Assembly: GCA_047602885.1 (NCBI GenBank)
Contig: JBLKOQ010000001.1
Location: 10,016-74,015 of the forward strand
Reading direction: 5' to 3'
Length of the DNA: 64,000 nt
DNA from: Candidatus Woesearchaeota archaeon
Lineage (GTDB): Archaea > Nanobdellota > Nanobdellia > Woesearchaeales > WAPJ01
A program made the translations under genes and the position numbers. Position 1 is the stretch's first letter; each line of letters starts with the position of its first letter. The notes below the pieces were generated by a model. It saw only the letters and a program-made list of their open reading frames with translations. It did not search any database and was not told the origin of the DNA. Positions 31,898 through 64,000 of this stretch are shown here, piece by piece.

Positions 31898-31963
31898 TGG
31901 TGCAAAGAAAACTTTAAATAGTTAATCAGACTTTACATGGTGTAATCATGGAGGGGTTACGAA

Positions 31964-34559: not shown

Positions 34560-34563
34560 TACG

Positions 34564-35142: not shown

Positions 35143-35421
35143 TTAAAGTCTATGATTTATAATCTTTTTCTAATATTATTGGCAGTGGATCATGTTATTT
35201 ATTGAATATATTAGTTGTTAAGATGATAAACATTGTTTTATGATGGGAATATCGGCTAACTCATAAGAGACAATTTTACAGGGCTTATAATACATAAAGT
35301 CATAGTGACTAGAAAAAGGAGCTGTATAATCCTTTCGATAATAGTGCTAAGCATAGTCTTTATAGTCGTTACATTTATAAAGGACTCTTGTTTAAAAATT
35401 ATGATATAAACATATCGGGGT

Positions 35422-44400: not shown

Positions 44401-47400
44401 AGCGGGACGGTCGAAAACGTGAGTATCGCGAACTGTAACATCATCAAAGAGAGTCCTGGAGGGAGCTCAGGGAGTAGGCGCCCAGCTATCCTCGGATACG
44501 GCTACTCAGGTACTCCTTCAGGAGGTTTCACAAAATCAGGTGATGAGCATACTGTTGAGCAAGTAAATATATCGAACGTTACTATCACGACCGAGGGAGA
44601 TTATGCTCGAGGCATATTTGTCTTAAGTGGTCATACTTGGAGTGTCGAAGATGTCTCTATCACAACGTATGGAGATGATGCCCGAGGAATCTACAGCGAG
44701 AACTCTGATCATTGGAGTCTCAGGAGAGTTGATATCACGACCTTTGGAACTGTAGGGATAGGACTGTATACGATCGATGCAAACCACTACTATCTCAAGG
44801 ACATCGATATCACTGCTGCGAGCGCAGGCATGTGGATCCGCACGGGAAGTTCGAACTGGCGGGCAGAGAACATTTCGATAAATGCTACGCTTCAAGGTAT
44901 CGCGACATCGGACGGAGGTATGGCTCACATGAGTTTTTACAACTCTACGATCCACTCATCAGGAAGCCGGGGATTAGATACCAATCAAGGTACAGATAAC
45001 ATCAGCTTCTACGATTCTATTATCACCGCTCCATCAAGTGACGATGTATACATGCGTCTTGGTGATGCGAGTCGGCGTGTTACGTTCGTCAACGTGACTT
45101 TCAACCCTTCCAGTGTCACGTTCCATGACTCGACCTCAGGATTCCTCGACGTTGGATGGTACGTCGACTTTCTCGTAAACGATACTCTAAGTTATCGAGT
45201 TGAGAATGCTAATATTAGTTGGCAGGATTCTGGTGTTATGAGCAGTTTGAACCCTAACAGTACTGGTTGGAAATTAACTGATAGTGGTGGATTGTCTCTA
45301 AGAAATATATTGTATGAGTACTCGCAGAACCAAACTGCTAGGTACTATCATACTAACTATAGCTTCGACATAAGTAGCCCATCATACGCTTCCCTTGTTG
45401 GAGCGTCTAGGAACTTCACTACAAATACACAATTGGATTTTACTATAGAGCCATTGTCGTTGGAGTGTGGTGTTATTAGCGAGCCTGGCTCTTATGTTAT
45501 GACTACTAATCTTACTGCTACAGGCACGTGTTTCACTATTAATGTTAGTGATGTAATACTGGATTGTCAGGATTATACTATTAATTATTCGACTGCTGAT
45601 GAGGGTTATGGTATTTTGATTTGGAGTCAGTCTTCTAATGTGGATAATGTTACGATACAGAACTGTGTTGTTGTGCAGGGTTCTGGTGAGGGTGATGTGA
45701 ATAGTGCGCGTCCTGGTATTTTGGGTTGGGGTGTTAATAATGGTCCGAGTGGTGGTTTGTCGAGTGTTAGTGGTATTTTTTATGAGGTTACTAATGTTTT
45801 GGTTGTGGATTCTAGTATAGTAACATTGGGTGATCGTTCGGATGCTATTAGGGGTGCGGTTTCGTATGACTGGGATGTTGTGGGTGTGAATGTTTCTACT
45901 GCTGGTCAGCTTGCTTCGGGTGTTTTTGGTACTTTTACGGGGGGTTGGTTGTTGTCTGGTGTTGATTCTTTTACTACCGGTGATAATTCTAGGGGTTTTG
46001 CTAGTTGGGATTCTGTTGATTGGGAGATTGTGGATTCTCGTTCTGAGGTTACTACTTTTTATTCTTATCCTATTCGTGCTGAGGAGGGTTCTCATGGATG
46101 GGTTCTGTCCAATGTTTCTCTTATCTCTGATGGTTTTGAGTCTGATGGGCTTCATGTGATTGATTCGGATAATTGGATGGTTGAGGGTCTTTTTGTTTCA
46201 TCATCGGGCACTCAGGCTGATGCTTTTTATTTAGAGGATTCTGATGGTTGGATGGTTTATGATTCTGATTTGTCTAGTGGGTCTGCGTTTGATGTTGTTC
46301 TTAATCTTAGTGATTCTTCGTATCGTGTTGGTTTTGTGAATACGAGTTTTGATCATTCTAGCGTGTCTCTTCTTACTCCGGGCTGGCTTGATAGGGGTTG
46401 GTGGGTGGATGCGTATGTGAATGATAGTCTTGGCAGTCCTGTAGAGGATGCTAATGTCTCTTGGAATGATGCTGGTATTATTAGTGGGAATCCTAGTAGT
46501 AGTGGTTGGAATGTTACTGATGATAGTGGACTTAGTGTTAGGAATGTCTTGTTTGAATATTCTGAGAATCAAACTGCGAGATATTATAATACTAATTATA
46601 CTATTAATGTTAGTCATGAGGATTATGATGATCTTATAGGAGAGTCAAGGAATTTTACGGGTAATACGCAGTTGAACTTTACTTTTTTGGGTGAGTCTTT
46701 AGAGTGCGGTGTTATTAGTGAGCCTGGCGAGTATGTTATGACTTCTGACTTGTCTGCTGCTGGTACTTGTTTTACTATTAATGTTTCTGATGTTAGTTTG
46801 GATTGTGGGGGTCATACGATTAACTATAGTACTGGTGAGGAGGGTTATGGTATTTTGATTTGGAGCCAGGGTGGGTTGGTTGAGAATGTGAATGTTAGTA
46901 ATTGTAATATTGTTAAGGATAGTGAGGAAGGTAATAGTTCGAGTCTTAGGCCTGCCTTACTTGTTTATGGTCGTAGTGCTGTTCCTAGTGGTTCTATTAG
47001 TGGTATTGCGGGTACTGCTCATTATGTAGATAATGTGTCTATTAATAATGTTAATGCTAGTAGTAAGGGAAATTATAGTAGTGGGATTTTTATAGTGCGA
47101 GGATGGTATTCTTCTATTAGTAATGTTATGGTTGATACTGATGGTAATTGGAGTTTTGGGATATGGGGCGATTACTCTTCTTATTGGAATATTTATAATA
47201 CTAGTATTTTTTCGTTAGGGCTGTTTAATGTTGGTCTGTATGGGGTGGATTCTAATTTTTGGGTTTTAGATAGTTTAAATGTAGATGTTGAGTTCAATGA
47301 TGGTCATGGTATTATTGGTTTTCGGTCAAATTCTTGGATTCTTTATAATGTTACTGTTATTGCTGACGGTTCTACAGTTAGGGGAATATCTCTATGGGAT

Positions 47401-48882: not shown

Positions 48883-50057
48883 AAAAAGCACTGCTATTGC
48901 TGATAATACTATTAACTGCAATCATGATAATAGAAGAATCAGTAGCATTCGGAGTGAGTCCAGGCAGAAAACAGTATGACTACCAGCCACAACTAGACGG
49001 TTACATAAACATCATAAACAGCCATAAGGAATCAGGAGAACTCATAATAGTCGCTAGAGGAGAATTATCAGAATACGTAATATTCAGCGAAAGGACAATA
49101 AAACTGGATCCCAACGTCCACGAAAATAGGGTTCATTATACTGTAAGAGTGCCCCAAGACAAGTTAGAGCCAGGCTCCAACGAAATAGATGTTTATATAA
49201 TGCCGATGACATTCGATACAGACCAGTCCACAGTATCAGCGCAGGCAGGAATAATCTTTAGAATAATAGTAAACCTTCCTTACGACGGGGCTCATGCTAC
49301 AGGAAGAATAGACTATAACAGCAGAACTAACACCATAATAATACCCGTAACAAATGTAGGAACACAAAGAATAGAAGATGCAAGAGCATCAGTAAGCATT
49401 ATAGGGCCTACAGGAGATATCATATCATCAAAATCGTCATCATCCAAAACCATAGGAATAAGAGAAACCATAGAATACAACATACCTTTAGATGGCATTA
49501 GCAACGGGCATTATCTTGCAAGAGCAACCATAGAATATGACAATAAAATACTAGTAATAGAAAGGAATATAGCGGTGGGAACAGCATTAATAGCAGTGCA
49601 ATCGATAGAAATGCCTGAATTCAGGTATGGTCATATAAATAGGATAGACATTAACGTAAAGAGCGAGTGGAACCAAGTAATAGAGGACGCTTATGCCATG
49701 ATAGAAATAATAGGACCTGCAGGAACACTAATAGAAAGGATAAAAACACCAGGAGAAAGAATAGAGCCTTACAGGACAAGCATACTAAGAGGATACTGGG
49801 ACACTGCAGGAATAACTCCAGGAGACCACCAGATAATAGCCACAGCAGTAGGAGAAGGAGGAAATGATACCAAAAGAACCATGGTTACCATAACCCCTAC
49901 AGGAATAGTAATGCAACAGCCTACAGGAAGAGTCGCAGGAGAAGGGGGGATGGGAATACTAGGAGTAGCACTCGCATTCCTGATAATAGCAAACATTATA
50001 CTGTTTGCGATAATACTATCAGGAAGAAACAAAAACAAAAAGAATAAAAAGCAGTAA
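48879..50057 (+). CDS. secreted protein with C-terminal TM anchor and basic tail, translationally coupled to the giant gene
   Basis: ATGA overlap with the giant ORF stop; N-terminal signal; C-terminal GMGILGVALAFLIIANIILFAIILSGRNKNKKNKKQ. Confidence 0.55.
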   Translation: MKKALLLLIILLTAIMIIEESVAFGVSPGRKQYDYQPQLDGYINIINSHKESGELIIVARGELSEYVIFSERTIKLDPNVHENRVHYTVRVPQDKLEPGSNEIDVYIMPMTFDTDQSTVSAQAGIIFRIIVNLPYDGAHATGRIDYNSRTNTIIIPVTNVGTQRIEDARASVSIIGPTGDIISSKSSSSKTIGIRETIEYNIPLDGISNGHYLARATIEYDNKILVIERNIAVGTALIAVQSIEMPEFRYGHINRIDINVKSEWNQVIEDAYAMIEIIGPAGTLIERIKTPGERIEPYRTSILRGYWDTAGITPGDHQIIATAVGEGGNDTKRTMVTITPTGIVMQQPTGRVAGEGGMGILGVALAFLIIANIILFAIILSGRNKNKKNKKQ

Positions 50058-50073
50058 CCAAAAAGGCATTATA

Positions 50074-50346
50074 ATGGTAGCAAATAAGACTACTAAAGCA
50101 AAAAAAACAACCAAAAAGAAGGTAGTGCATCCTAAGCCATATTCCGACCTCACGTTCTACCAGAAGAAGATGAGAGAAGAAATAAGAAAACTGCATGACG
50201 CTACAGAAACATTCGTAAGAATAGCAGTAAACAAGACGGCAAAAGAAAACAAGATACACGAGATAGAAGAACACATACTAGAGATAGGAAGAAATATTGA
50301 CGAACTAGAAGACCTACTGCATGATATTAGCAAGGGGAAAGTATGA
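50074..50346 (+). CDS. small lysine-rich helical protein (paralog A)
   Basis: 90 aa, KKTTKKK N-terminus, shares an (I/L)RKLH(D/K) core with the next ORF. Confidence 0.4.
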   Translation: MVANKTTKAKKTTKKKVVHPKPYSDLTFYQKKMREEIRKLHDATETFVRIAVNKTAKENKIHEIEEHILEIGRNIDELEDLLHDISKGKV

Positions 50347-50606
50347 TGACAACAAGAAAGAAAAGCAGGACAATAAGCAAGACTAAGAGCAGAAAAAGAA
50401 CTGTTGCTAATAAGAAGGATCAGGACATTACTATAGCATTAAGAAAGCTCCATAAGGACATGGAAGACAGTCTAAAAAGGATGGAGTCACTAATAGGAAA
50501 GATAGAGGATGACAAAGCCAAGCCAAAAATAAAGAAAGCCATAACAAGGTTTCATAAGAAACAAAAAGAACAATTAACAAAAGTAGTGAAAACAACAAAA
50601 AAATGA
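50343..50606 (+). CDS. small lysine-rich helical protein (paralog B)
   Basis: 87 aa, 4-nt overlap with paralog A, LRKLHKDMEDSL core, K-rich both ends. Confidence 0.4.
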   Translation: MMTTRKKSRTISKTKSRKRTVANKKDQDITIALRKLHKDMEDSLKRMESLIGKIEDDKAKPKIKKAITRFHKKQKEQLTKVVKTTKK

Positions 50607-50987
50607 TTATTCATTCCGAAGTATACCATCCATAACAGTTCTTAAGTCCTCGCCATTATAGATAAATGCTCCTTCTCTCAAGCCCATATTAGCATCTCTT
50701 GCGAGCTTCTTAGCTGTTATCATATCGCCAGTATTGTAATGGCTAATAGCCTTTAATCCCATAATGCACGAGCGATGGTCCTCCAAAGAGCGTATCTTCT
50801 CTACGAGAGCATTACCAACCCTTGGGGGAAGATCGATATCACTAGCAGCATCCCTTAAAGTCTCTATAGCCCTATAATAATCGTCAGGCGTTCTTCTCAT
50901 CTCGAAACCAATAGATTGGCTGTACCTGTCCCCAAAATCAACATCCTTAACGGCATACGTCCTTAATATGTTCTCATATTCTTTCAT
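50607..50987 (-). CDS. hypothetical protein
   Basis: 126-aa ORF with native composition; no motif recognised. Confidence 0.35.
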   Translation of the reverse strand: MKEYENILRTYAVKDVDFGDRYSQSIGFEMRRTPDDYYRAIETLRDAASDIDLPPRVGNALVEKIRSLEDHRSCIMGLKAISHYNTGDMITAKKLARDANMGLREGAFIYNGEDLRTVMDGILRNE

Positions 50988-51073
50988 AATACCACCTTAT
51001 AATAGCAATGAGATACTAGTATAAATTAGTAACGCTTATAAAACCGTTCTGCCGAATAATAGTAGATGATAAT

Positions 51074-51568
51074 ATGACCAAAATAATAGTAATGCTAGCA
51101 ATAATATTATTGGCTGTAGGGGCATGCCAGTCAGAAGAGCCCCCAACACAGGACACTACAGTGCCAGTAGACACTACTAATGATAATGACCTGCAAGAAG
51201 AACATGATGATAGTGATGAATATTATGACTGGGATGATTATGAAGACTGGGAAGAATACGACAATTACTGGGATGACGATTGGGATGACGAATACGAATA
51301 CTATGACTACGATGAATATGATTATGAGGATTACATCACAATAGAAGAGCTCTCAACACATAATACCCTTGATGATTGCTGGATAGCATACGAAGGAGAA
51401 GTCTATGACATAACACTATACTTATCAAGACATCCTGGAGGGGCAGGGGCAATAATCCCATACTGCGGGACAGCAGGAGAGTTTGAAGAAGCCTTTGACG
51501 GCCAGCATGGTCCAACTCAGTACCAAACACTATTAAGAGAAGCAGTATTTGTAGGAATGCTAGTATGA
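51074..51568 (+). CDS. secreted cytochrome b5-like heme-binding domain protein with an extreme Asp/Glu/Tyr/Trp-rich tract
   Basis: Signal peptide; acidic-aromatic tract DDSDEYYDWDDYEDWEEYDNYWDDDWDDEYEYYDYDEYDYEDY; cyt-b5 motif AYEGEVYDITLYLSRHPGG. Confidence 0.55.
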   Translation: MTKIIVMLAIILLAVGACQSEEPPTQDTTVPVDTTNDNDLQEEHDDSDEYYDWDDYEDWEEYDNYWDDDWDDEYEYYDYDEYDYEDYITIEELSTHNTLDDCWIAYEGEVYDITLYLSRHPGGAGAIIPYCGTAGEFEEAFDGQHGPTQYQTLLREAVFVGMLV

Positions 51569-51999
51569 TAATACTAAGAACATTAGGCGAAAAACTGGAA
51601 TACTATTCCAAAGCAGTATTAAGGATAGGAATATCAATAGTATTCTTATGGTTGGGAGTATTGCAGTTAACTGACAGCCAATTATGGAAAGAATATGTTC
51701 CTGACATAATAATAGGAATAATCGCCAATCCAGAATTACTAGTGGTCATTAACGGAACAGTCCACATAGTACTAGGCACACTATTATTGGCAGGAGGATT
51801 CACTAGAATAACAGCGTGGGCATTATCAGCAAACCTAATAATAATATTATTAGGGATAGGATATGACATTATAGGAATACTAACACTCGGAATGCTCGCA
51901 GGAACAATAAGCATAGCAATGACAAGTAACGATCCTCTAAGAATAGACAATAGGATAAGACTATTCAGAAAAAAGAAAGATCCTATAAGCTTCGACTAG
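51565..51999 (+). CDS. DoxX-like small membrane protein (4 TM)
   Basis: 144 aa, 4 TM topology; 4-nt overlap with the cyt b5-like gene. Confidence 0.4.
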   Translation: MIILRTLGEKLEYYSKAVLRIGISIVFLWLGVLQLTDSQLWKEYVPDIIIGIIANPELLVVINGTVHIVLGTLLLAGGFTRITAWALSANLIIILLGIGYDIIGILTLGMLAGTISIAMTSNDPLRIDNRIRLFRKKKDPISFD

Positions 52000-52784
52000 T
52001 ATGATATATCAAAGAGTATAGGATAATGGTCTGACGCCCAGTTGGTATGCTTGTCTTTAGGAACAATCCCAGATAATACTTTAATATCCTTGGATACAAA
52101 CAAGTGGTCTATCCTAATCCCAGACTTCTTATTAATACTAGCATAATCTGTAGGAATAGTATAAGTCCTATTCATCCTGGGCATGGCATCCCTAAGACCA
52201 TAACGCCTAAGCATAGGAATAAGCTTAGGACTTAACAGCTCTTCAGCCTTCCTCTCAGGCTCATGATTGGCAAGAGAATAAAAAGCATCTATAATAGCAT
52301 TAATATCGTACTTGTCATGGTCTGAAACGGCATTAAAATCTCCCGTAATAATATAAGGATGTTTCTTAGCCTTCATAAGAGGTCTTACACTCTCGGCTCT
52401 CACAGACTCACTGATATTAGGAGAGGCATGATATACGTCAACATACAACTTCTTCCTCCCAGTCCTAACCATCCCAGTAATAGCAGTCCTGTCAACAAGC
52501 TTGATTACACGAGCATCTATAGGATAACGAGACAATAAGCAAGAGCCCCACTCATGGTCCCCCCAAAAGCCAAAAAAACCATGTTCGTAACCAAATATCC
52601 TCTGATAGTCCACATATATTCCAGTATGATTATAACCTCCATAACAAGCCTCGCATAATACCAGTATGTCAGGATTATGTATTCTTACAGCTTTTTTGGC
52701 ATGGTTAAGCCTAGCCCTGTCAAGAATATGCTCATTAGAATGAAACCCGTGCAGTATATTATAAGTCATTATCCTAATCTTCAT
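51996..52784 (-). CDS. endonuclease/exonuclease/phosphatase (EEP) family protein
   Basis: N-terminal IMTYNILHGF, C-terminal SDHYPILFDI motifs. Confidence 0.7.
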   Translation of the reverse strand: MKIRIMTYNILHGFHSNEHILDRARLNHAKKAVRIHNPDILVLCEACYGGYNHTGIYVDYQRIFGYEHGFFGFWGDHEWGSCLLSRYPIDARVIKLVDRTAITGMVRTGRKKLYVDVYHASPNISESVRAESVRPLMKAKKHPYIITGDFNAVSDHDKYDINAIIDAFYSLANHEPERKAEELLSPKLIPMLRRYGLRDAMPRMNRTYTIPTDYASINKKSGIRIDHLFVSKDIKVLSGIVPKDKHTNWASDHYPILFDISY

Positions 52785-52830
52785 AAACAGCCATGATAGA
52801 ATGATATTATTTAATACTATCCCTTAGATT

Positions 52831-52966
52831 GGCTCTCTAGTAAATGTCTGTAAAAGTGTGCTATGCGCCACCCCGTAGGGGCCATCCCCCGGCGGCATCA
52901 GCGTCAAGCAAGAACAGGTGTTCTTGCTCCAGCTGACGGCTGTCGCACACTTTTACTACAATGCCT
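52831..52966. mobile_element. MITE-like element copy 3 (same GC-rich core) 47 bp upstream of the EEP gene start
   Basis: GGCTCTCTAGTAAAT ... TTTTACTACAATGCC termini; imperfect direct repeats CTTAGATT / TTCAGATT at the flanks. Confidence 0.5.
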
Positions 52967-53111
52967 TCAGATTACATAATAGTCATCGTGGTATAATGAG
53001 GATAGAGATCCAATTCTGAGCTTGTCTATAATCCTAGTAGGGTCTTTAGGCCTAAGAATATTGTCATACATCAGCATCTCGATAATACTCGATAATGGTG
53101 TGCTAGGATAG

Positions 53112-53225
53112 ACAGGCTCTATGCCACTATTATGATTGTTAATGGGTCGGGTACATACCTCGGTCTTTAGGTCGATAGCAGTTTAACCATTAACTCCAAC
53201 ATACCGCGCCCTTTAGGGCGGGGTT
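53112..53225. repeat. family-2 short repeat copy B, preceded by a GGCTCTATGCC MITE-terminus-like sequence
   Basis: AGCAGTTTAACCATTAACTCCAACATACCGCGCCCTTTAGGGCGGGGTTG is about 80% identical to 27964-28017. Confidence 0.25.
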
Positions 53226-53463
53226 GTTGATTATGATAATAGAAATAGTATGCGTAGGGCGCATTATCATCATCACAATCCTTGATAAAAAAGAATGTAG
53301 GAAAATCCCCAATATTACTGCATACTTCATGATACTTGTATCCTGCCTCGCTAATCAGCCTGACATTGCCAAGAGCATCATAATACATTCTATTGAGGAT
53401 GCGTTTCTCATCCAATCCAATGCGATTAGAGTAGTCTACGGGTTGCATGATAATGATTGACAA
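53167..53463 (-). CDS. hypothetical protein
   Basis: 98-aa ORF; its 3' end overlaps the family-2 repeat; weak. Confidence 0.3.
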   Translation of the reverse strand: MSIIIMQPVDYSNRIGLDEKRILNRMYYDALGNVRLISEAGYKYHEVCSNIGDFPTFFFIKDCDDDNAPYAYYFYYHNQQPRPKGRGMLELMVKLLST

Positions 53464-53874
53464 TCATATAGGATATGGTCCCCTGTGAAGCCTTTCATAA
53501 GGCAAAGCGCCCCTAACCCTCTCTTCAAGGAAGGACGGCATATCATCTAAAGGCTTATGCTTAAGATCACTTTCCTTAATCATATTATAAATGCTCTCTG
53601 CCTCAGGACTATAAGCTGGTATGGGGTGCAATCCTCCCTGTTTGCCGTCAAAAGCAATGTATACTGCTACAGGATGGCCGTTAGGACTCATAAGAAAATC
53701 GTGATTCACCAAGTAGAATGATGGTTCATCCCCTTTAGGATTAATCTTGTCATAAAGATTATAGCCATTATCCCTTAACAGTGCAATCTGCTCAAGGACA
53801 GATACAACCCTGCTCTCTACAATCTTATCGTCTTTAGGGTTCTTTTTTCCGTTATTCTGTTTCTTTGATGCCAT
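53464..53874 (-). CDS. hypothetical protein
   Basis: 136-aa ORF with native codon usage, adjacent to 53167..53463. Confidence 0.4.
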   Translation of the reverse strand: MASKKQNNGKKNPKDDKIVESRVVSVLEQIALLRDNGYNLYDKINPKGDEPSFYLVNHDFLMSPNGHPVAVYIAFDGKQGGLHPIPAYSPEAESIYNMIKESDLKHKPLDDMPSFLEERVRGALPYERLHRGPYPI

Positions 53875-53987
53875 ACCAATCCCTCATAAATACACATTGT
53901 TATCACTATGGAGTGATATTAGTGTATTTAAACTTATCTAAGTAGATTTCTTTTACACGATGACATTTATAAAGGTAATGTTTAGAA

Positions 53988-54737
53988 TCAGTTATCCTGA
54001 GGATTATTAATCTCATTAGCATAACGCTGATGAGCGGCAATAGCCATCCTTTCATACTTGTCACGCTCGTCACTAGTCTCAGCATTCTGCATCCTATAAT
54101 TATAATAGTCAATCTGCATCCTAAAAACATCCTCTTCAGAATCAATATAAGCTGAATGTGCTTTCTCATGGTCGTATACGAACTCCACTGCTTCATCATC
54201 ATAAAGCCCATGAGCACGGGCAAAATATGGGATTATAGCATCATAATTCTCGTTAGCAATAATAATGCCTTCACGCTCATTCCTCCTAATAGCAGCCACT
54301 ACTTTAGGACCGAGAGTAGCGGATGATACGCCCTTAATCTCCACAGTATCCAATCCTTTACTGTCAAGATATTCTTCAAAAATCCTGCCAGGACCACTCA
54401 TATAATCATTATAAGAGGTTGATACTGCTTCTACTTCATTGTCTCTCTCAACAATATCATCAACACTTACAGTACCACTACTATAATACTCTTTGGTACC
54501 ATCATTATACTTTATTGCTTCAGCATAAGGAATAGTACTGTTAGTAAAATAATGATTTATTGTATCATCATTATTAGGAACAACATAAACAGAATATCTT
54601 CCCAAAACATTATCAATATTCTCTTTGGTACTCATAATATATGATTCCATACTTGAAATCACACTGATAATCCGCTCTAACATGAAACATGTCGATACAA
54701 TGTTATTAAAAAACTTTACGATATTAGGATTAGTCAC
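53988..54737 (-). CDS. hypothetical protein with a C-terminal HExxH (HEKAH) motif, a possible minimal zincin-like hydrolase; true start probably an internal Met
   Basis: 249-aa ORF; FVYDHEKAHSAYIDSEED near the C-terminus; 4-nt overlap with the P-type ATPase gene. Confidence 0.3.
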   Translation of the reverse strand: MTNPNIVKFFNNIVSTCFMLERIISVISSMESYIMSTKENIDNVLGRYSVYVVPNNDDTINHYFTNSTIPYAEAIKYNDGTKEYYSSGTVSVDDIVERDNEVEAVSTSYNDYMSGPGRIFEEYLDSKGLDTVEIKGVSSATLGPKVVAAIRRNEREGIIIANENYDAIIPYFARAHGLYDDEAVEFVYDHEKAHSAYIDSEEDVFRMQIDYYNYRMQNAETSDERDKYERMAIAAHQRYANEINNPQDN

Positions 54738-57361
54738 TCATCAAAGTCTAAATAGCGATACTTGTTATTGAGATACTTTATGATATCAAATATGAGTATC
54801 ATCATCATAGCAAGACCTATAGGAACAAGCCAGTATAATATTGGTACTGGCAGCGTTTCAAAAACGGGGTTAAGAGCAGGAATATATACTATTGATATGA
54901 GCAACAACAATGACAGAGTACTAGTGCCTACAAGGTAAGGGTTTACGAAAGGACTCCTGTTAAGCACTCCCTTCCTAAAACTCCTAAAGATAAATGCTTT
55001 TCCAAGGCCCATTATTACTATGGTCATAAGAGCCATTGTTCTTGCAAACTCTAAAGAGGCTCCACGCTCATTAATAAGATAGTTGAACACTAATAGAGGG
55101 CCTACAGTCATAATAATACCCGCAACTAATATCAGTATAATAAGATCCTTATTTAATATAAAACTCTTCTTTCTCGGCTTTACCTTCATAATATCATCAG
55201 ACGACTTGTTAAAACCAAGAGTAATAGCATTAACCTCATCAGACAATAAGTTCATGAACAGTATCTGGAGTGCAATAAGAGGCAAAGGAAGATTAAGCAT
55301 TACAGAAACAAATATTAATGATAGCTGTGCAATATTGGTTGATATCTGGAAAGAAGTAAACTTACGAATATTATTAAATATTGTCCGTCCTTCCTCTACA
55401 CTGCATACTATAGTAGCAAAATTATCATCCTTAAGAGTAATATCCGCTACTTCTCTAGTAACATCAGTGCCATTCTTTCCCATAGCAATACCAATATGGG
55501 ACTCTTTTAGTGCAGGAGCATCATTAACACCATCACCAGTCATAGCCACTATCTCACCAGTACTCTTAAGATTCTTAACAATCCTAAGCTTATGCTCTGG
55601 TTTGACACGTGCAAAAACGCCTGCCTTAACTAATACTTTAGACAATTCCTCTTCAGTCATGTCATCAATCTCAAAGCCCTCAAGCACATTGCCCTTAATC
55701 CCAATCTCCCTTGCTATTGCCTTAGCAGTCTCCTTATTATCACCTGTAAGCATTATTACTCTGATGCCCGCAGTATCGCACTGCTTAATACTATTCTTAA
55801 CCTCTGGCCTGGGAGGGTCTTCAAGACCCAATATTCCTATTAATACTAGTTTTTCTTCAAAAGAAGCCTTCGTTTTGGACACTGATTTTTTATATGCTAC
55901 TGCAATAGTCCTATAGCCCTGAGTAGTAAGGGATTCATTGGCTTTCATAATAGCCTTCCTCTCAGCCTGAGATAATTTATCAATCCTGCTACCCTTATAA
56001 TGATGAGTACAATGAGGAAGTACAAATTCCAATGCTCCTTTAGTATAAACATAATAATCGGACTTTTCTTTAGTCAATACTGACATCATCTTCCTATGGC
56101 TGTTGAAAGGAATTTCTTCTTTGCGAACAGCATTAATATCCTCCAAATATATGTTGGCTTTAGCTCCCAGTATCATCAATGCTCCTTCAGTAGGAGAGCC
56201 TATAACATGATATTCGTCAATATCTTCACTGCGCTCTATTTTGGAATCATTGCATAATACTGATGCTTTGATAAGAAGATGAAGGTGACTGGTAGGCTTA
56301 ATATCAACATTCTTCCTGTTATGCAAGAATCTTCCTTCAGAAGAAAACCCTGCTCCTTCCACATCATAAAACTTATAGTCGCTCCAAATCTTCTTGACAG
56401 TCATCTCACCCCTGGTAAGAGTGCCTGTCTTATCAGTGCATATAACTGTAGCTTCTCCTAAAGCCTCTATTACAGACATCCTATTAACTATGGCATTCTT
56501 TACAGCCATCCTACGAGCGCCAGCAGCAAGAGTCGTAATAAGCACCACAGGAAGGCCTTCAGGAATGCTCGCTACGCTAATAGCAATAACCACTATTAAT
56601 ATTTCTATAAGTTCGGGTGCAATCCACTCTACCCTGGTAAGCATAGTTATACCTGTAAGAAATGATACTGATAGCGCTATAATAGCAAGATATTTAGTTA
56701 ATAAGTTGACCTTCTTTTGCAACGGAAGCTCTTTCTCGGCAGTTCCTATAAGATCAGCTATTTTTCCGAACTCTGTATCCATACCAGTCTTTAGAACTCT
56801 GGCTGTAGCCCTACCATTAACAATATAAGTGCCCATAAAAATATGGTTTTCTGGCTTTTCCTTCTTCTTATAAGCAGTCTTCCTAATCTCCTTAGACTCC
56901 CCTGTAAGAACAGCCTCATTAAGCCTCAATTCCTTCTCATCCAATACTACGCAGTCGGCAGGAACCCTCTCGCCGGTCCTCAACATTACAATATCACCAG
57001 GAACTAATAGTCTGGATTCTACCTCTTTTTGCTTACCATCCCTAAGCACTACAGTCTTGGGCATAATCATGCTCTTTAACGCTTTAATAGACTGCTCAGC
57101 CCTATACTCCTGAAAGAATCCCACACCAATAACTATTAGTATCACAACGACCAAAGCCCATCCTGTAAGCTGCTTTTCAGGAACAAGAAAAGATATTATC
57201 ATAGCAAAAGTAAGAAGGTAGACCATGCTGTTCTTCTTAACCTGCCTAAATAGTATTTTTAGGGGGCTTACCTTCAATACTTCCTGCAACTCATTAGGAC
57301 CATGCTCTTCTAAGAGCTTATCAGCCTCTCTACTAGTAAGACCCCGTAACACCATTAACAA
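54734..57361 (-). CDS. P-type cation-transporting ATPase, P2 (SERCA/PMCA-like, Ca2+/Mg2+-type)
   Basis: DKTGTLT phosphorylation site, PEGLP, TGDNKETAKAIA, GDGVNDAPAL, 10 TM; 875 aa. Confidence 0.9.
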   Translation of the reverse strand: MLMVLRGLTSREADKLLEEHGPNELQEVLKVSPLKILFRQVKKNSMVYLLTFAMIISFLVPEKQLTGWALVVVILIVIGVGFFQEYRAEQSIKALKSMIMPKTVVLRDGKQKEVESRLLVPGDIVMLRTGERVPADCVVLDEKELRLNEAVLTGESKEIRKTAYKKKEKPENHIFMGTYIVNGRATARVLKTGMDTEFGKIADLIGTAEKELPLQKKVNLLTKYLAIIALSVSFLTGITMLTRVEWIAPELIEILIVVIAISVASIPEGLPVVLITTLAAGARRMAVKNAIVNRMSVIEALGEATVICTDKTGTLTRGEMTVKKIWSDYKFYDVEGAGFSSEGRFLHNRKNVDIKPTSHLHLLIKASVLCNDSKIERSEDIDEYHVIGSPTEGALMILGAKANIYLEDINAVRKEEIPFNSHRKMMSVLTKEKSDYYVYTKGALEFVLPHCTHHYKGSRIDKLSQAERKAIMKANESLTTQGYRTIAVAYKKSVSKTKASFEEKLVLIGILGLEDPPRPEVKNSIKQCDTAGIRVIMLTGDNKETAKAIAREIGIKGNVLEGFEIDDMTEEELSKVLVKAGVFARVKPEHKLRIVKNLKSTGEIVAMTGDGVNDAPALKESHIGIAMGKNGTDVTREVADITLKDDNFATIVCSVEEGRTIFNNIRKFTSFQISTNIAQLSLIFVSVMLNLPLPLIALQILFMNLLSDEVNAITLGFNKSSDDIMKVKPRKKSFILNKDLIILILVAGIIMTVGPLLVFNYLINERGASLEFARTMALMTIVIMGLGKAFIFRSFRKGVLNRSPFVNPYLVGTSTLSLLLLISIVYIPALNPVFETLPVPILYWLVPIGLAMMMILIFDIIKYLNNKYRYLDFDE

Positions 57362-57400
57362 ATCTTAAGGCAATGCATTTTTAAATATTACGCTAAACTA

Positions 57401-57757
57401 ATGAGTATTATGAGAGAAGAACAAGAACTAGCAGAGCTTATAGAAGAACTGATGGAATATTCTGCTGATTATCCTATAATAGTAGAAGGGCCCAAAGACG
57501 TTAAAGCATTGGATAGAGCAGGAATAAAAAGCATTCCATACGAAGGATCGATAATAGAATACTCTGAAAAGATAAAAGAAAAGCATCCTAACACTAATAG
57601 AGTGCTGATACTAACAGATTATGATAAGGCAGGAGAAGAACTCAGAATAATGCTAAAGAACGCATTATCAAGACTAGGAATAGAAGAGGATATCAAACTG
57701 AGACTAAAATTCAAGAGAATCACAAGGCTCAGCCACATAGAAGGGTTTAGGATATGA
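57401..57757 (+). CDS. small Toprim-domain protein
   Basis: E...DxD pattern: PIIVEGPKD ... VLILTDYDKAGEEL, typical of standalone archaeal Toprim proteins. Confidence 0.5.
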   Translation: MSIMREEQELAELIEELMEYSADYPIIVEGPKDVKALDRAGIKSIPYEGSIIEYSEKIKEKHPNTNRVLILTDYDKAGEELRIMLKNALSRLGIEEDIKLRLKFKRITRLSHIEGFRI

Positions 57758-57759
57758 GA

Positions 57760-58041
57760 CTAGTCCATACTATCGATATTAGATTGTGTCTTGGATATAT
57801 TATTCATCTCTTCATTTGACAACTCATGTTTTCTAACCCAATAGACTCCCTTATAAGAGTCTTTGTATAAATAATTAAAGTTTACAAGCTCTCTTCTGAT
57901 AAGAACATAATCATCCACATCAAAACTTATGATTATATCATTAACCTCTGACTCTTGGTATATCCTTCCTACATTAAACTTTCTGGATATCATAGAGAGT
58001 ATTTTCTGCTTATCCAGGTCATCACGAGGCAATTTTATCAT
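57760..58041 (-). CDS. hypothetical protein
   Basis: 93-aa ORF overlapping the kinase gene start by 4 nt. Confidence 0.3.
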   Translation of the reverse strand: MIKLPRDDLDKQKILSMISRKFNVGRIYQESEVNDIIISFDVDDYVLIRRELVNFNYLYKDSYKGVYWVRKHELSNEEMNNISKTQSNIDSMD

Positions 58042-59009
58042 AATAGACCCTCAAATAAAGATACTTTTTTGTTAGAAACTAAGCCTAGTTTCCTGCATTC
58101 ATTCAGGCAATGATAAGCATAGTCAGTATGATGCTTTATGGGCTCTTTGTCTTGAATATCTTTAGAAACAATCCCTTTCTTAATCTCATATACATGCATA
58201 ACACTCCAACAAAAAGTCTCAAACATTTTCAATGGAATGAATGCCTCAACCCTTTTTTTTAGAGTGGTATCGCTCCTGTGCTTTAGGTATTCATCATAAA
58301 AGATTTCCTGATGATTCTTATACAATCTCTTTCCAAAACCAGTAAAAACATCAGCAATATCGTAGGCAGGATCAGATACTCCACAACTCTCAAAATCGAT
58401 AAACTTTAACTCATTATTAGTATCATAAATCATGTTTTGCTCACAAATATCACCATGCGTAATAGAAACTACATTATCCGGTCCACTTATTATTAGTCTT
58501 GGTAGGCATTCTAATAAGAACACACTGTCTTTTGCTCCACCATATTTCTTGGCAAGCCTAATATATCTTACTATGCTTTTTTTGACATCAGAATAAGTCA
58601 TCCTAAAAAAAGGGATATTCTTGCCTATAGGAATAGAATGCAGTGTAGCGGTTACTCTGGCAATATCCCTTATCATACTGCTTGATAATCTCATCCTTTT
58701 AAGGTCCTGTCCAGGAATGTATTCTATAATCAGATAGTCTTGTGGAATAATTCTCTTAGTAGTGTCCTTAGTGTAAGGAGTGGGGCTAATGTTATATGGC
58801 TGCAGGTATTTCAACACTCTGTATTCTTTACTGATCTTGTGTTTTTCTTTGAGATCAGCGTTTACCCTAACAATGTATTTATCATCTACCAAAAAGTTAG
58901 TATTGCTCTCACCTGAACCTAACTTCTTAATTATAGGTCTAGTCAAGTGCAAATGAGTCTTTACTGCCTTTCTGACATCAGACACCTTGATATTCATAGT
59001 ATAAACCAC
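58038..59009 (-). CDS. aminoglycoside/choline-kinase-like phosphotransferase (APH fold)
   Basis: Brenner motif HGDICEQNMIYD and DFE metal-binding motif. Confidence 0.6.
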   Translation of the reverse strand: MVYTMNIKVSDVRKAVKTHLHLTRPIIKKLGSGESNTNFLVDDKYIVRVNADLKEKHKISKEYRVLKYLQPYNISPTPYTKDTTKRIIPQDYLIIEYIPGQDLKRMRLSSSMIRDIARVTATLHSIPIGKNIPFFRMTYSDVKKSIVRYIRLAKKYGGAKDSVFLLECLPRLIISGPDNVVSITHGDICEQNMIYDTNNELKFIDFESCGVSDPAYDIADVFTGFGKRLYKNHQEIFYDEYLKHRSDTTLKKRVEAFIPLKMFETFCWSVMHVYEIKKGIVSKDIQDKEPIKHHTDYAYHCLNECRKLGLVSNKKVSLFEGLL

Positions 59010-59091
59010 TAACTTAAACGTGTTTATAAATAGTATGCATATTATTTTGTCAGTAACTAATAAACATTAGAAGAACTATCTATTACACGCA

Positions 59092-59220
59092 TTATAAAAG
59101 ATTTATGAATTCCTCTCTCGTAAGCCCTGCCTGTCTTATTATTGCTCTTAGAGTTCCTATTCCTATTAATTTATGATTCTCATAATCTTCATTAGTTTTT
59201 TCCCAGAAATAATAGGAAGT
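59092..59220 (-). pseudogene. HicA-family toxin remnant (C-terminal about 35 codons only), immediately 3' of hicB
   Basis: Reverse-strand translation ...EKTNEDYENHKLIGIGTLRAIIRQAGLTREEFINLL* matches the HicA C-terminal GTL..I.KQAGL motif; no start codon or N-terminal half. Confidence 0.35.
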
Positions 59221-59433
59221 TTAGGCATTAATCTCCACCACTTCCTCATCAATAGAAGGGGGTATAGGCTCATTATGCTTATCTAAGCTTGCGATATATC
59301 CTTTAATAGCATCCTTAATATTAGTGATAGCTTCACTTCTGCTCTTTCCTTGGGAAATGCAGCCAGGAAGTGCAGGACATTCTGCTATAAATGCTCCGCT
59401 CTCGTCAACCTCTATAACAATACGGTATTTCAT
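59221..59433 (-). CDS. hicB: HicB-family (UPF0150) antitoxin
   Basis: MKYRIVIEVDESGAFIAECPALPGCISQGKSRSEAITNIKDAI, the characteristic HicB N-terminal fold. Confidence 0.6.
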   Translation of the reverse strand: MKYRIVIEVDESGAFIAECPALPGCISQGKSRSEAITNIKDAIKGYIASLDKHNEPIPPSIDEEVVEINA

Positions 59434-59507
59434 AATTATCCCAACATAAAGATAATAACCATTGTATATAAATTAAATTTAATAAGAGCCGATCTTTTAA
59501 TAGAGTC

Positions 59508-59786
59508 CTAAGACACAACAATACTATTAGTATCATCATCATTTTCATTCCATTCGAACTCTAATTCAAGCTCATGCTTGCCCTTATCATTAACCTCATA
59601 CTTTATCTCTAATGATATACTGCCTTTGGGTGTTACACGCACATCATTATTATTATTGGTTACGAGATTAAAATATCCTTGTGACTTGAGCTTATTGCCT
59701 AACTCCAATAATAGATCGCCTACTTCTCCTACAGTCTTAATGTCATTGCCTTTATACAATATTTTGTCCATAATATCATCCCCCAT
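59508..59786 (-). CDS. small acidic protein resembling amphi-Trp domain proteins
   Basis: ...SISLEIKYEVNDKGKHELELEFEWNEND; recalled family pattern, not verified. Confidence 0.3.
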   Translation of the reverse strand: MGDDIMDKILYKGNDIKTVGEVGDLLLELGNKLKSQGYFNLVTNNNNDVRVTPKGSISLEIKYEVNDKGKHELELEFEWNENDDDTNSIVVS

Positions 59787-59841
59787 GAATGATAGGGATT
59801 AGAATTTCATTAATAAATGGTTATGAATCATTATTGTATTA

Positions 59842-60918
59842 TCATACCCATTCGCGCCTCCTAAAATAGTATAGCATTCCGATCATAATCATAGCCATAA
59901 TCCCGAGTATCATAAAATAGCCGTACTGCCATTCGAGTTCAGGCATATTAACAAAATTCATTCCGTAAACACCTGCAATAAAAGTTAAAGGGATAAAAAT
60001 GGTTGCTATAACAGTTAGCACTTTCATAACCTCTCCCATCCTATTACTTATAGTAGTAAGGTATATGTCATGAAGGCTTGATAATATGTCCCTATAAGAT
60101 TCTATAGCATCAATAACCTGTACGCAATGATCATAAGCATCCCTAATATAAACTCTGGTATCATCACTGATAATACTGCCTTCTAACTTAGACAACCTGC
60201 TAATAACCTCTCTTGCAGGCCATACACTCCTCCTAATCATAATAATCTCTCTTTTAAGAGAATGCATATCAGACAACGCTTTCTTAGTAGGATTGTCAGA
60301 TATCATTTCCTCCAATAATTCGAGCCTATCACCATAATCCTCTAATACCACGAAATATTCGTCTATAATAATGTCTATCATCCTATAAGCAAGATAGTCT
60401 GCCTTCCTCCTCCTAAGCCTACTGTCAGGCTTTTGCAGACCATTGCTAAGCACACTAAAAATATCATAGTCCTCTTCCTGAAATGACAATACGAATCCAT
60501 TGCCCATAATAATGCTTACCTGCATAGGATTATGATTATTGGATATGCCTCTCAATACAATATAAGAGTATCCTTCATACTCTTCTATTTTGGGCCTCTG
60601 AGAAGTATTCATAATATCCTCCAATACTAGAGGATGGATATTAAACAGGGATCCTATCCTCGATAATACATCCTTATCATGAACGCCTCTAACATCAAGC
60701 CAATACTGTTTCTTCTTGCGAGGTTTATACTCTAATTTTGTTATGTCATCAACATGCAAAGTATCAATATTCTTATCAGAATATTCTGTTACAATAATGC
60801 TGACAGGCTTATTAGTCTTAGTTCCGGTATGAACCAGTGAGCCTGGAGGCAGCCCTTTCTTAGAACCCGTAACAATCCTATACTTAGGCTTCCTGACAAT
60901 ACTCCTGATACTAACCAT
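59842..60918 (-). CDS. corA: CorA-family Mg2+/Co2+ transporter
   Basis: C-terminal two TM helices with YGMNF (GMN) signature; 358 aa. Confidence 0.85.
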   Translation of the reverse strand: MVSIRSIVRKPKYRIVTGSKKGLPPGSLVHTGTKTNKPVSIIVTEYSDKNIDTLHVDDITKLEYKPRKKKQYWLDVRGVHDKDVLSRIGSLFNIHPLVLEDIMNTSQRPKIEEYEGYSYIVLRGISNNHNPMQVSIIMGNGFVLSFQEEDYDIFSVLSNGLQKPDSRLRRRKADYLAYRMIDIIIDEYFVVLEDYGDRLELLEEMISDNPTKKALSDMHSLKREIIMIRRSVWPAREVISRLSKLEGSIISDDTRVYIRDAYDHCVQVIDAIESYRDILSSLHDIYLTTISNRMGEVMKVLTVIATIFIPLTFIAGVYGMNFVNMPELEWQYGYFMILGIMAMIMIGMLYYFRRREWV

Positions 60919-61041
60919 AAAATGGTAGTATTAACAGTAATTATAAACTATTACTCAAACTCTGCAAACCAAGGCTGGTTCTTATAAGAGTTCCTTACAA
61001 GTATAGAAAGACATATAAACATTGTTTTATTTTCAGAACAT

Positions 61042-61662
61042 ATGTTGCAAAAATCGAACAATATTGCGCTTGATATCATAGAATTATTGGTTGTAAAAGA
61101 CTTACACCTAAGAGCAATATCAAGAACACTATCATATAATCCAAGCACAGTACTAAGCAAACTGAATAGCCTGATGGAAGACAACATATTAGACTATAGG
61201 AGAGAAGGCAAAAACAAGATATTCTTCCTCAAAAAGAACCAATGGACAAAAAACTATCTTGTCCAAATGGAATGCCACAAAGCACTCAAATTTTTCCGAA
61301 AAAAACAGGAATTCAGCGTAATTTTTGAGGAAATACTAATGAAAACTGATGCGCAATTAGTATTATTGTTCGGAAGCTATGCGAAAGGCACAGAAAAAGG
61401 CAACAGTGACATAGACATATACGCAAATACCAAAAACATCCGAGATGTCAAGGAGATAAGAAGCATCCATGCCAGAATAAGGGCTACTATAGGAGAACTA
61501 CAAAAGGATACGGAACTATTCAATGAGATCATGAACAACCATATTGTCATAAGAGGAGCTGAAAAACTGTATGAGGAATACTGGTTTCCTGAAAAAACTG
61601 GCAAGAGAACACAAAATAAGCATCTTAGAACCCTCAAAAAACCTAACAAGAGCATACCTTAA
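61042..61662 (+). CDS. winged-HTH + minimal nucleotidyltransferase (MNT) protein, paralog 4
   Basis: LLFGSYAKGTEKGNSDIDIY NTase motif. Confidence 0.65.
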   Translation: MLQKSNNIALDIIELLVVKDLHLRAISRTLSYNPSTVLSKLNSLMEDNILDYRREGKNKIFFLKKNQWTKNYLVQMECHKALKFFRKKQEFSVIFEEILMKTDAQLVLLFGSYAKGTEKGNSDIDIYANTKNIRDVKEIRSIHARIRATIGELQKDTELFNEIMNNHIVIRGAEKLYEEYWFPEKTGKRTQNKHLRTLKKPNKSIP

Positions 61663-62074
61663 CAAGGCGCAAGACTGCTATGAGAGCGCAGCACTGCTAA
61701 GAACGAATCGTCACTATCAAAACTCAATAATAATGTCATACTATGCAATGTACAACAGCATAACCTCAATATTATATATGAACGGAATAAAATCGTCAAA
61801 CCATTCCGGCACCATAATGTTATTTGACCTATTATATGAGGAGAAAGAGATATGCGATATTATAATAGGAGCAAAAAAGAGCAGGGTAGAAAACCAGTAC
61901 AGTCCAAATAAACATAATGAGGAAGTAATGAGCGAGCTCTCAGAAGAATTAATAATGGCTTCGGGTATGATAATAAGACGGATAAAAACACTAATACAGG
62001 CAAACAAGCAGGATGATACAGAACAAAGAAGAAAAACCCTCTTAAAAGTCCTAAATGTGAGCAATGACAAATGA
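61571..62074 (+). CDS. HEPN-like helical protein, homolog of 28025..28525, partner of the MNT gene
   Basis: Shares YYAMY...SSNHSGTIML with the other HEPN-like ORF; overlaps the NTase gene (the start codon may be non-ATG). Confidence 0.4.
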   Translation: MRNTGFLKKLAREHKISILEPSKNLTRAYLNKAQDCYESAALLRTNRHYQNSIIMSYYAMYNSITSILYMNGIKSSNHSGTIMLFDLLYEEKEICDIIIGAKKSRVENQYSPNKHNEEVMSELSEELIMASGMIIRRIKTLIQANKQDDTEQRRKTLLKVLNVSNDK

Positions 62075-62100
62075 TGCCTCTGCCCATACTGCCTAAACCA

Positions 62101-62107
62101 ATATAAA
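62101..62107 (+). promoter_or_regulatory. TATA box (ATATAAA) about 26 nt upstream of the primase start
   Basis: Canonical spacing to ATG 62130. Confidence 0.3.
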
Positions 62108-62129
62108 CAAGACAATAATACACTGTAGC

Positions 62130-63734
62130 ATGCACCCAATATTACTAAAGAGCATAGCTGTAAAGCATTATTTTAGGAGTATAATCAGCGATGCGATTGC
62201 AGAAGAATGTATGAATAGAGAAGTAGCAGTAAAATATTCTTATGGGTTCGGCAAGAGGCCTGAAATGATAGAGACAGGCGCAGAAATAAGGCAATTGGCA
62301 CTCCAAGGATCTACAAGCTATCATATAAGCGAAGAACTATGGGAAAACCCGTTAGACATTAAGACTGGGATGACAGAAAAAGAATACAACAATATAAGGA
62401 TAGGATGGGACCTCATAATAGACATAGACGCTCCCGACTGGAGGTTCTGCAAGGTAGTATGCGCTACTATGATAAGAGTACTAAAAGACCTGGGAATAAA
62501 AACTATAAGAGTGAAGTTTTCGGGCAACAAAGGATTCCACATAGGAGTGCCATGGGAATCATTTCCTAAAGAAGCATCATACAACAATAATACTGCAGAA
62601 CTATCATCATTATTCCCTCAACTTCCTAGAGAGATAGCAAGAATCATGATAGCAGAAGCTGACAAAAACCATATAAGAATAGACGACCAAGGAAAAATAA
62701 TATTTTTGGAAGAACACTATTTTGAAAGAGAAGAAATAAAAGAGATACTCGGAATAGAAGACAACGAACTCCTAGTAAAAAAGTGCGAGTCATGCAACAA
62801 TATCTATGAAGAGGACAAGACTAGAGTATACGAGTGCCCGAACTGCATGGCAAGAAGAGTATCAGAAGAAGAATACCTAAAATGCACAAACTGCAATATA
62901 GACATGAACATAATAACAAAAGTTCCGAGATGCGAATGCGGCAACACCACTTTTTATACAGCACTAAATGTAGAGAGAATACTCCATTTAGACACGCTCC
63001 TAATAAGTCCCAGGCACTTATATAGAAGTCCGTACAGCATCCACGAGAAATCAGGACTATGCAGCATACCTATAGACAAGGATACAGTACTGGGATTTGA
63101 GAAGCATTATGCAAGACCAGAATACATAGCAAAAATAATACCTTTCATTAATAGTGAGATAAGAGAGGGTGCTAACAGCAAAGAAGGAGTAAGACTCATA
63201 AGAATGGCACTGGACAATATACAAGAGCCTCTAAAAGAAACATCCTACGAAGAAATAGATGTTCCTAAAGAAGCCCTAGGAGAAGAACATTATCCTCCGT
63301 GCATAAAGAATGCATTGCAGGGAATAAAAGACGGCAAGAAGAGAACAGTACTGATAATGTCAAGCTATCTTAGGAGCATAGGATGGGATAAGAGCAGCGC
63401 AGAAAAGATAATATACTCGTGGAACAATAAGAACGAAGAGCCTCTAAGAGAAGTGTACATTAAAGGACAATTAAGACATGCATTCCAAGGAAAACCTATG
63501 CTGCCGCCGAACTGCGACCACAAGGACTATATGAAAGACATAGGACTATGCACTCCCGACGAGTTCTGCATGACCATAAGAAATCCCGCCCAATACTCAA
63601 AGAAGAAGCACGAGATGAAAAAGACTATAAGAAAGGGAAGGAAAAAGAAGGATGCCAACAAAGAAAAAAAGAAAGAAAAGAAAGAGGAAAAGACTCATAA
63701 TAAAGAGGAAAACAATAATGAGAATAACACCTGA
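62130..63734 (+). CDS. archaeo-eukaryotic DNA primase with fused domains: PriS catalytic domain with Zn-ribbon insert plus C-terminal 4-Cys PriL-CTD-like domain
   Basis: AEP motif I LIIDIDAPD, motif II FSGNKGFHIGVPW, motif III DTLLISPRHLYRSPYSIHEKSG; CxxC...CxxC ... CxC zinc ribbon; C-terminal Cys in PPCIKNAL, PNCDHKDY, LCTPDEFC; K/E-rich tail. Confidence 0.65.
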   Translation: MHPILLKSIAVKHYFRSIISDAIAEECMNREVAVKYSYGFGKRPEMIETGAEIRQLALQGSTSYHISEELWENPLDIKTGMTEKEYNNIRIGWDLIIDIDAPDWRFCKVVCATMIRVLKDLGIKTIRVKFSGNKGFHIGVPWESFPKEASYNNNTAELSSLFPQLPREIARIMIAEADKNHIRIDDQGKIIFLEEHYFEREEIKEILGIEDNELLVKKCESCNNIYEEDKTRVYECPNCMARRVSEEEYLKCTNCNIDMNIITKVPRCECGNTTFYTALNVERILHLDTLLISPRHLYRSPYSIHEKSGLCSIPIDKDTVLGFEKHYARPEYIAKIIPFINSEIREGANSKEGVRLIRMALDNIQEPLKETSYEEIDVPKEALGEEHYPPCIKNALQGIKDGKKRTVLIMSSYLRSIGWDKSSAEKIIYSWNNKNEEPLREVYIKGQLRHAFQGKPMLPPNCDHKDYMKDIGLCTPDEFCMTIRNPAQYSKKKHEMKKTIRKGRKKKDANKEKKKEKKEEKTHNKEENNNENNT

Positions 63735-64000
63735 AGAATTATCACAATTCTTTCAAGATAAAGACCTGTTAGTGCTAATGGAATCCTTATTGGAAGGAGA
63801 GGATATTGGAAATGATAATGAGCAACACATAGTCGATGCTCTAAGAGATGGTGTCAGAGAATCTGTTAAGGAAGGAGAAAAGCCATTATTCACAACCAAA
63901 GAGACGTACAGGTATAGCACGAGAGAATCATACATTAAAGAACTAATAGGACTATTAAGAGAAAAAATAGAAGGAAGCATAATAACAGACGCTACATGTG
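63718..64000 (+). CDS. hypothetical protein, 3'-partial (runs off the window), translationally coupled to the primase gene
   Basis: ATG at 63718 inside the primase stop region (ATGA-type overlap); open frame to the window end with native codon usage. Confidence 0.35.
   Translation, partial: MRITPEELSQFFQDKDLLVLMESLLEGEDIGNDNEQHIVDALRDGVRESVKEGEKPLFTTKETYRYSTRESYIKELIGLLREKIEGSIITDATC

Follow-up and report, generated by a model that had tools for sequence, protein, structure and literature searches.

Iyer et al. are said to have noted in 2005 that the primase subunits PriS and PriL are fused in Nanoarchaeum equitans. In 2014 Nanohaloarchaea and Parvarchaeota were added to the lineages known to have it (PMC3914693), and the fusion is described as a synapomorphy of DPANN Cluster 2 together with Undinarchaeota/Naiadarchaea, Woesearchaea included (PMC7414124; bioRxiv 10.64898/2026.06.17.729505). 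Surveys of Cluster 2 DPANN archaea report the fused primase gene only (PMC7414124), and a primase tree that includes Woesearchaea points to vertical inheritance and reaffirms the fusion (bioRxiv 10.64898/2026.06.17.729505). Independent PriS-PriL fusions are found on plasmids such as pTN2 (PMC3973330, PMC3914693); these mobile-element fusions lack sequence similarity to the DPANN primases and are of independent origin (PMC3914693). The fusion in Woesearchaeota and related DPANN archaea is already known, indeed a hallmark of these lineages, and finding it here is ordinary. An earlier note on this DNA had limited it to Nanoarchaeum-like lineages, which is too narrow, as it is documented across DPANN Cluster 2 and Undinarchaeota/Naiadarchaea, as well as on plasmids.

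The closest described enzyme is NEQ395 of N. equitans (AAR39242.1, 393 aa), characterized as a functional monomer by Schneider, Bergsch and Lipps in 2023 (PMC10250227). According to that study, in which the essential residues were mapped by mutagenesis, a D87/D89 double mutant is inactive, the Fe-S cluster is dispensable in vitro, the enzyme is not complemented in trans, and its linker is flexible and protease-sensitive (PMC10250227).

We analyzed a stretch of 64,000 nucleotides, here called the window, and the primase gene lying near its end. The region from 62130 to 63734 on the plus strand is a single uninterrupted open reading frame of 534 aa running from ATG to TGA, with coordinates as the earlier note had placed them, and the three cysteine-containing strings quoted there (PPCIKNAL, PNCDHKDY and LCTPDEFC) are all found in the translation. 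The features of the gene are as follows.

62130..63734, plus strand: complete gene for a predicted monomeric PriS-PriL(CTD) primase, 534 aa and a TGA stop.
62130..63164, plus strand: PriS-type AEP catalytic domain, residues 1-345 (from PF01896 at residues 101-316, Foldseek and pLDDT).
62409..62429, plus strand: AEP motif I, DLIIDID, residues 94-100, with D98 and D100 as predicted metal ligands.
62520..62540, plus strand: AEP motif II, SGNKGFH, residues 131-137, with S131, K134 and H137.
62784..62939, plus strand: double zinc-ribbon module, residues 219-270, eight cysteines inside an insertion specific to the clade between motifs II and III (from the Cys pattern).
62988..63026, plus strand: AEP motif III, LD, residues 287-288 (D288), followed by H296 and R299, predicted to bind nucleotide.
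63165..63293, plus strand: interdomain linker, residues 346-388, with a helix (354-363) and a flexible low-confidence stretch (367-373).
63294..63605, plus strand: PriL C-terminal (Fe-S) domain, with C391, C462, C474 and C480 as putative ligands.
63606..63731, plus strand: Lys-rich low-complexity C-terminal tail, residues 493-534, 17 K+R in 42 aa.

One chain thus carries a PriS catalytic core fused to a PriL-CTD-type Fe-S domain. In Pfam searches, PF01896 (DNA_primase_S) matched residues 101-316 with 36.8 bits against a cut-off of 26.8, and PF04104 (DNA_primase_lrg) matched residues 368-499 with 26.0 bits against a cut-off of 22.4, the latter spanning only positions 87-230 of the 266 in the profile. 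The NCBIfam PriL equivalogs likewise aligned over their C-terminal halves only, e.g., positions 196-358 of 360. Because the PriL profiles are matched by their C-terminal part alone, the N-terminal domain by which PriL docks onto PriS is absent; the profile ranges and the AlphaFold2 model together place a covalent linker where this PriS-binding domain would otherwise be. The model has a pLDDT of 88.1 for the whole protein, with values mostly above 90 in the AEP domain, low confidence in the linker and values below 50 at residues 367-373. In terms of sequence, the motif and domain matches lie far above chance level.

The PriS catalytic core proposed earlier is borne out by PF01896 above its cut-off and by Foldseek matches to solved PriS structures, the PriS half grouping with human Pri1, Pyrococcus PriS and Sulfolobus PriS; human PRIM1 also aligned around motif III when phmmer was run against the PDB. 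AEP motifs I to III, which had been noted as present, were located as DLIIDID, SGNKGFH and LD and are unchanged in all 120 homologues compared, where H65, D98, D100, S131, K134, H137, D288, H296 and R299 are invariant. A stand-alone canonical PriS of the arCOG04110 type was considered and rejected, given the fused PriL-CTD and the lack of a four-ligand zinc knuckle after motif I; the NCBIfam PriS equivalog scored 20.9 against a cut-off of 326.

Several lines of evidence agree on the C-terminal domain, in which C391 lies in PPCIKNAL, C462 in PNCDHKDY, and C474 and C480 in LCTPDEFC. The best sequence match in the PDB by phmmer was Pyrococcus abyssi PriL (9f26_B, E=7e-7), to which the PPC and PPNC...LCTPD..C blocks align; a profile built from the CTD alone (24 sequences) improved this match to E=5.9e-9 and found S. 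solfataricus PriL weakly. A fold search with the CTD matched PriX, yeast PriL-CTD and human p58, and also listed photolyases, followed by helix-bundle domains from the NrS-1, RepB' and pRN1 primases. The earlier suggestion of a four-cysteine domain resembling PriL-CTD is supported by PF04104, NCBIfam PriL, the P. abyssi PriL alignment and the fold matches alike; a C-terminal domain structurally unlike PriL-CTD, named beforehand as grounds for refutation, was not what the fold search returned. The four cysteines are kept in 115 of the 120 homologues, in register in 110 and with the third cysteine two residues off in five. An apparent loss of the third Fe-S cysteine in these five (CCKC) was rejected, as it is an alignment shift. 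The CTD most likely carries a [4Fe-4S] cluster on C391, C462, C474 and C480, as this cysteine pattern would predict. Its second helix bears K403, K404, R405 and L408. Beyond the domain, the tail finishes in an N/E-rich stretch; tails across the clade are unconserved in sequence and recur in composition, with a median of 32 aa beyond residue 495 and 36% K+R, a character from which any function of the tail could only be surmised.

We compared the window protein with NEQ395, drawing the correspondence from the published residue numbers. By this numbering, D87/D89 of NEQ395 correspond to D98/D100, S119/K122/H125 to S131/K134/H137 (identical 3+3 spacing), D194/H202/R205 to D288/H296/R299 (identical +8/+3 spacing), C289 with R301, R303 and F306 (+12, +14, +17) to C391 with K403, R405 and L408, and C364-x11-C376 to C462-x11-C474. 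For every NEQ395 residue that mutagenesis has shown to matter, the published numbering thus gives a matching residue here, spaced in the same or nearly the same way, and the two proteins have in common the spacings DxD, S-x2-K-x2-H, D-x7-H-x2-R, C-x11-(R/K)-x-R-x2-(F/L) and C-x11-C. Both consist of a single chain with a PriS domain, a helical or flexible linker and a four-Cys PriL-CTD, both belong to the same DPANN clade, and the low-confidence stretch in the window linker parallels the flexible linker of NEQ395. Two positions differ, with Lys in place of R301 and Leu in place of F306. The latter, position 408, is the one exception to invariance of the catalytic and initiation residues among the 120 closest homologues, being Phe in 113 and Leu in 7, with the window protein on the side of Leu.

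The window protein is 141 aa longer than NEQ395. The largest difference lies between motifs II and III, which are 151 aa apart in the window protein versus 69 aa in NEQ395 (+82 aa, comprising the two zinc ribbons); further additions are the Lys-rich tail (+45 aa), the linker (+8 aa) and the N terminus (+11 aa), and these segments, with small differences elsewhere, fully explain the excess. NEQ395 has no basic tail and ends 9 aa beyond its last cysteine. The organisms also differ, the window coming from a mesophile of low G+C content, unlike the source of NEQ395.

The heterodimeric PriS/PriL enzymes of P. abyssi (9f26/9f28), P. furiosus (1g71) and S. solfataricus (1zt2/5of3) have the same AEP fold and motifs as the window protein, and archaeal PriL of this kind has an Fe-S CTD with PPC...PPNC...C...C blocks that can be aligned to the window CTD, as for P. 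abyssi. In contrast to these heterodimers, the window primase is a single polypeptide without the PriL N-terminal PriS-docking domain, and its zinc ribbons lie between motifs II and III, whereas the canonical PriS knuckle follows motif I. The eukaryotic PRIM1/PRIM2 proteins (human p49/p58C, yeast Pri1/Pri2) are 13-21% identical in sequence to the window protein, which, unlike them, is fused, far smaller and without the Pol alpha-binding apparatus; its CTD spans about 105 aa versus about 190 aa in the eukaryotic primase.

Altogether, we consider it about 90% probable that the product of the window gene primes replication of the chromosome in a Woesearchaeal archaeon (DPANN Cluster 2), working by an NEQ395-like mechanism. 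This reading builds on the observed architecture, conservation, fold and distribution of the protein, and takes from NEQ395 its monomeric action, its short RNA primers and the part of the CTD in initiation. A single polypeptide would do the work of the PriS/PriL heterodimer. In the AEP domain, D98, D100 and D288 would form a two-metal active site that, with H137, makes the phosphodiester bond, while H65, S131, K134, H296 and R299 would form the pocket for the elongating NTP. The flexible linker would tether the helical domain of PriL-CTD type, most likely with its [4Fe-4S] cluster, and by analogy with NEQ395 and human p58C, the basic residues K403, K404 and R405 and the hydrophobic L408 would bind both the nucleotide that initiates synthesis and the primer's 5' end. 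The CTD would swing onto the active site for synthesis of the first dinucleotide, and the two domains would part as the primer grows, so limiting primer length. The double zinc ribbon and the Lys-rich tail probably add contacts with ssDNA or the template, although this is speculative. Because the cluster is dispensable in NEQ395 in vitro, the mechanistic role of the Fe-S cluster would be uncertain here as well.

The distribution of the family bears on this reading. The window protein has a 100% identical counterpart at NCBI, in a Candidatus Woesearchaeota MAG. Of the more than 2,250 homologues, the 120 best listed each align across 90% or more of its length, and relatives occur in at least 576 GTDB species genomes. 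An exhaustive HMMER scan of 1.84 billion representatives gave 700 clusters (50% identity) at E<=1e-3, with 278 at the stricter limit of E<=1e-30. Where the titles of the best 80 loci are informative, they read Woesearchaeota, Nanoarchaeota or Nanobdellota. Both the identity to the MAG protein and the DPANN titles of homologous loci uphold the affiliation that had been proposed from the fusion, and by its sequence the window primase can be assigned to the monomeric PriS-PriL(CTD) group of DPANN Cluster 2/Undinarchaeota ('Nanostetteria'), of which NEQ395 is the prototype.

Some titles are anomalous. About half of the best 80 loci (L001-L080) are titled 'uncultured Methanosarcinales archaeon', likely through mislabelling or bin contamination. 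Bacterial labels are found on locus L071 (Alphaproteobacteria) and NCBI protein P0111 (candidate division KSB1 bacterium); on such primases, bacterial labels have been put down to contamination (bioRxiv 10.64898/2026.06.17.729505).

An alternative is that the gene belongs to an integrated plasmid or virus and encodes a primase-polymerase such as PolpTN2 or pRN1 ORF904, replicating a mobile element rather than the chromosome. The architecture itself invites the comparison, as PolpTN2 (from Thermococcus nautilus pTN2), pRN1 ORF904 and RepB' likewise join an AEP domain, by a covalent tether, to a helical domain for initiation; fusions of this type, however, sit on mobile elements, usually together with a helicase or another replication module, and mostly lack the four-Cys Fe-S cluster, whereas the window gene sits in a chromosomal context. 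The surrounding genes are ordinary cellular ones, coding for CorA, a P-type ATPase, a kinase, an M17 peptidase and a VWA protein, and no helicase, integrase or other mobile-element gene was detected near the primase, nor any helicase domain within the 534-aa protein. The presence of orthologues in so many species genomes and the vertical inheritance in the published phylogeny (bioRxiv 10.64898/2026.06.17.729505) argue against a mobile element as well, as does the search of 2.9 million viral contigs, among which no relative was found; structural matches in BFVD were generic AEPs at 10-15% identity. We regard this alternative as very unlikely.

A role as a repair or translesion PrimPol, or as a LigD-type polymerase in NHEJ, would draw on matches to such enzymes: PF21686 (LigD_Prim-Pol) scored 25.4 bits, below its cut-off of 27.4, NCBIfam ligD_pol (TIGR02778) scored 19.8 against 214.7, also below threshold, and Prim-PolC and LigD polymerase domains were among the Foldseek matches. 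These reflect generic likeness of the AEP fold, PriS scoring higher and above threshold, whereas the Fe-S domain of PriL-CTD type is missing from LigD and Prim-PolC enzymes, and neither Ku nor a ligase gene was detected among the neighbours examined, which makes such a role exceedingly improbable. No more credible is that the fused primase is not truly monomeric and still works with a second protein, PriL- or PriX-like, from another part of the genome, since no second PriS- or PriL-like ORF was found in the 64-kb window by a family-profile search of its six-frame translation, the gene overlapping it downstream resembles methyltransferases and adjoins the primase in just 1 of 80 related loci, NEQ395 functions as a monomer for which complementation in trans fails (PMC10250227), and the fused gene alone is reported in Cluster 2 DPANN (PMC7414124).

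That downstream gene, of 377 aa, starts at 63718, shares 17 nt with the end of the primase gene, stop codon included, runs to 64000 on the plus strand and continues in L081:2085-3218; its matches to SAM-methyltransferases (TRM5/TYW2, RNA cap guanine-N2 MTase) are weak and below threshold, and its candidacy as a partner subunit was rejected. Immediately upstream of the primase lies an overlapping pair on the plus strand, a nucleotidyltransferase at 61042..61662 (PF18765/PF01909) and a HEPN protein at 61571..62074 (PF05168), which resembles an MNT/HEPN toxin-antitoxin module. In the 80 related loci, neither this pair nor CorA is a conserved neighbour of the primase.

Elsewhere in the window, a giant plus-strand ORF at 35422..48882 (4,486 aa) consists of RCC1 or RCC1-like beta-propeller repeats, with PF25390 at 532.9 bits and PF00415 in 13 stretches; GC skew in this region is extreme (+0.2 to +0.46) and AT skew negative. 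Its product is probably a very large surface or adhesion protein of the kind typical of DPANN episymbionts. Rfam and tRNA scans detected no tRNA, rRNA or other Rfam family in positions 1..64000, so the window holds no RNA marker for taxonomy; their absence from 64 kb of a small DPANN genome is unremarkable.

The insertion between motifs II and III deserves separate comment. A CxxC/CxxC insertion had been claimed earlier, and such an insertion is indeed present, but it is larger than was thought: four cysteine pairs, C219xxC222-x13-C236xxC239 and C252xxC255-x12-C268xC270, give eight cysteines in all and make two zinc ribbons. All eight are kept in 75 of the 120 homologues, with a shifted CxxC in most others, and the region gave a weak Pfam match to the DUF7129 zinc ribbon; from this pattern, we infer that the module binds metal. 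Across the family, two architectures can be told apart among the 98 scorable representatives. The long form, to which the window protein belongs, has a motif II-III gap of at least 130 aa with at least 7 Cys (50 of 98), and the compact form has a gap of less than 90 aa with 0-2 Cys (32 of 98). The distance from motif I to motif II is 29-40 aa with 0-3 Cys throughout, and the canonical four-Cys PriS zinc knuckle after motif I was found in no family member scored.

The NEQ395 paper speaks of no zinc module (PMC10250227), and a literature search for one in Woesearchaeal primases found no description, which is absence of evidence only; the distinction between long forms with two zinc ribbons and compact forms seems not to have been described before. 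A role of the module in template binding is plausible. The zinc-binding domain of the bacterial DnaG and T7 primases offers an analogue for priming-site specificity or ssDNA affinity. As the family lacks the PriS zinc knuckle and the compact, NEQ395-type members lack any such module, the double zinc ribbon might tentatively be read as an undescribed template-recognition module that sets one or the other of these properties, although we think this rather doubtful. If true, the Woesearchaeal long-form clade would stand apart in mechanism from other monomeric primases, as a variant of its own.

Other variants are found among the homologues. In five proteins 43% identical to the window protein (P0009-P0013), all four Fe-S cysteines are replaced together (by S/T, Y, Y and E) and an insert of about 7 aa has been gained after the position of the first ligand, yet none of the catalytic or initiation residues has been lost; these proteins would represent a natural cluster-free variant and bear on the debate over the need for the primase Fe-S cluster. 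Inteins with Intein_splicing and LAGLIDADG homing endonuclease domains occur in members of about 900-1,000 aa. The motif positions of P0155 and P0201 place the intein after AEP motif I and before motif II. P0220 and P0260 are compatible with this site, as their intein is N-terminal to the portion of the PriS match that spans motifs II and III. P0176 has its intein between the PriS match and the PriL-CTD match.

The window gene itself tells nothing new about primase evolution. As a reliable taxonomic marker, the fused primase places the window in DPANN Cluster 2 ('Nanostetteria'), and the fused-domain assignment corrects the public annotation, 'DNA primase small subunit domain-containing protein', which names the small-subunit domain only. 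The minor new points concern the family, namely its long and compact forms, the subclade without Fe-S ligands and the intein-bearing members, and these variants could guide the choice of constructs for work on the roles of the primase Fe-S cluster and zinc modules.
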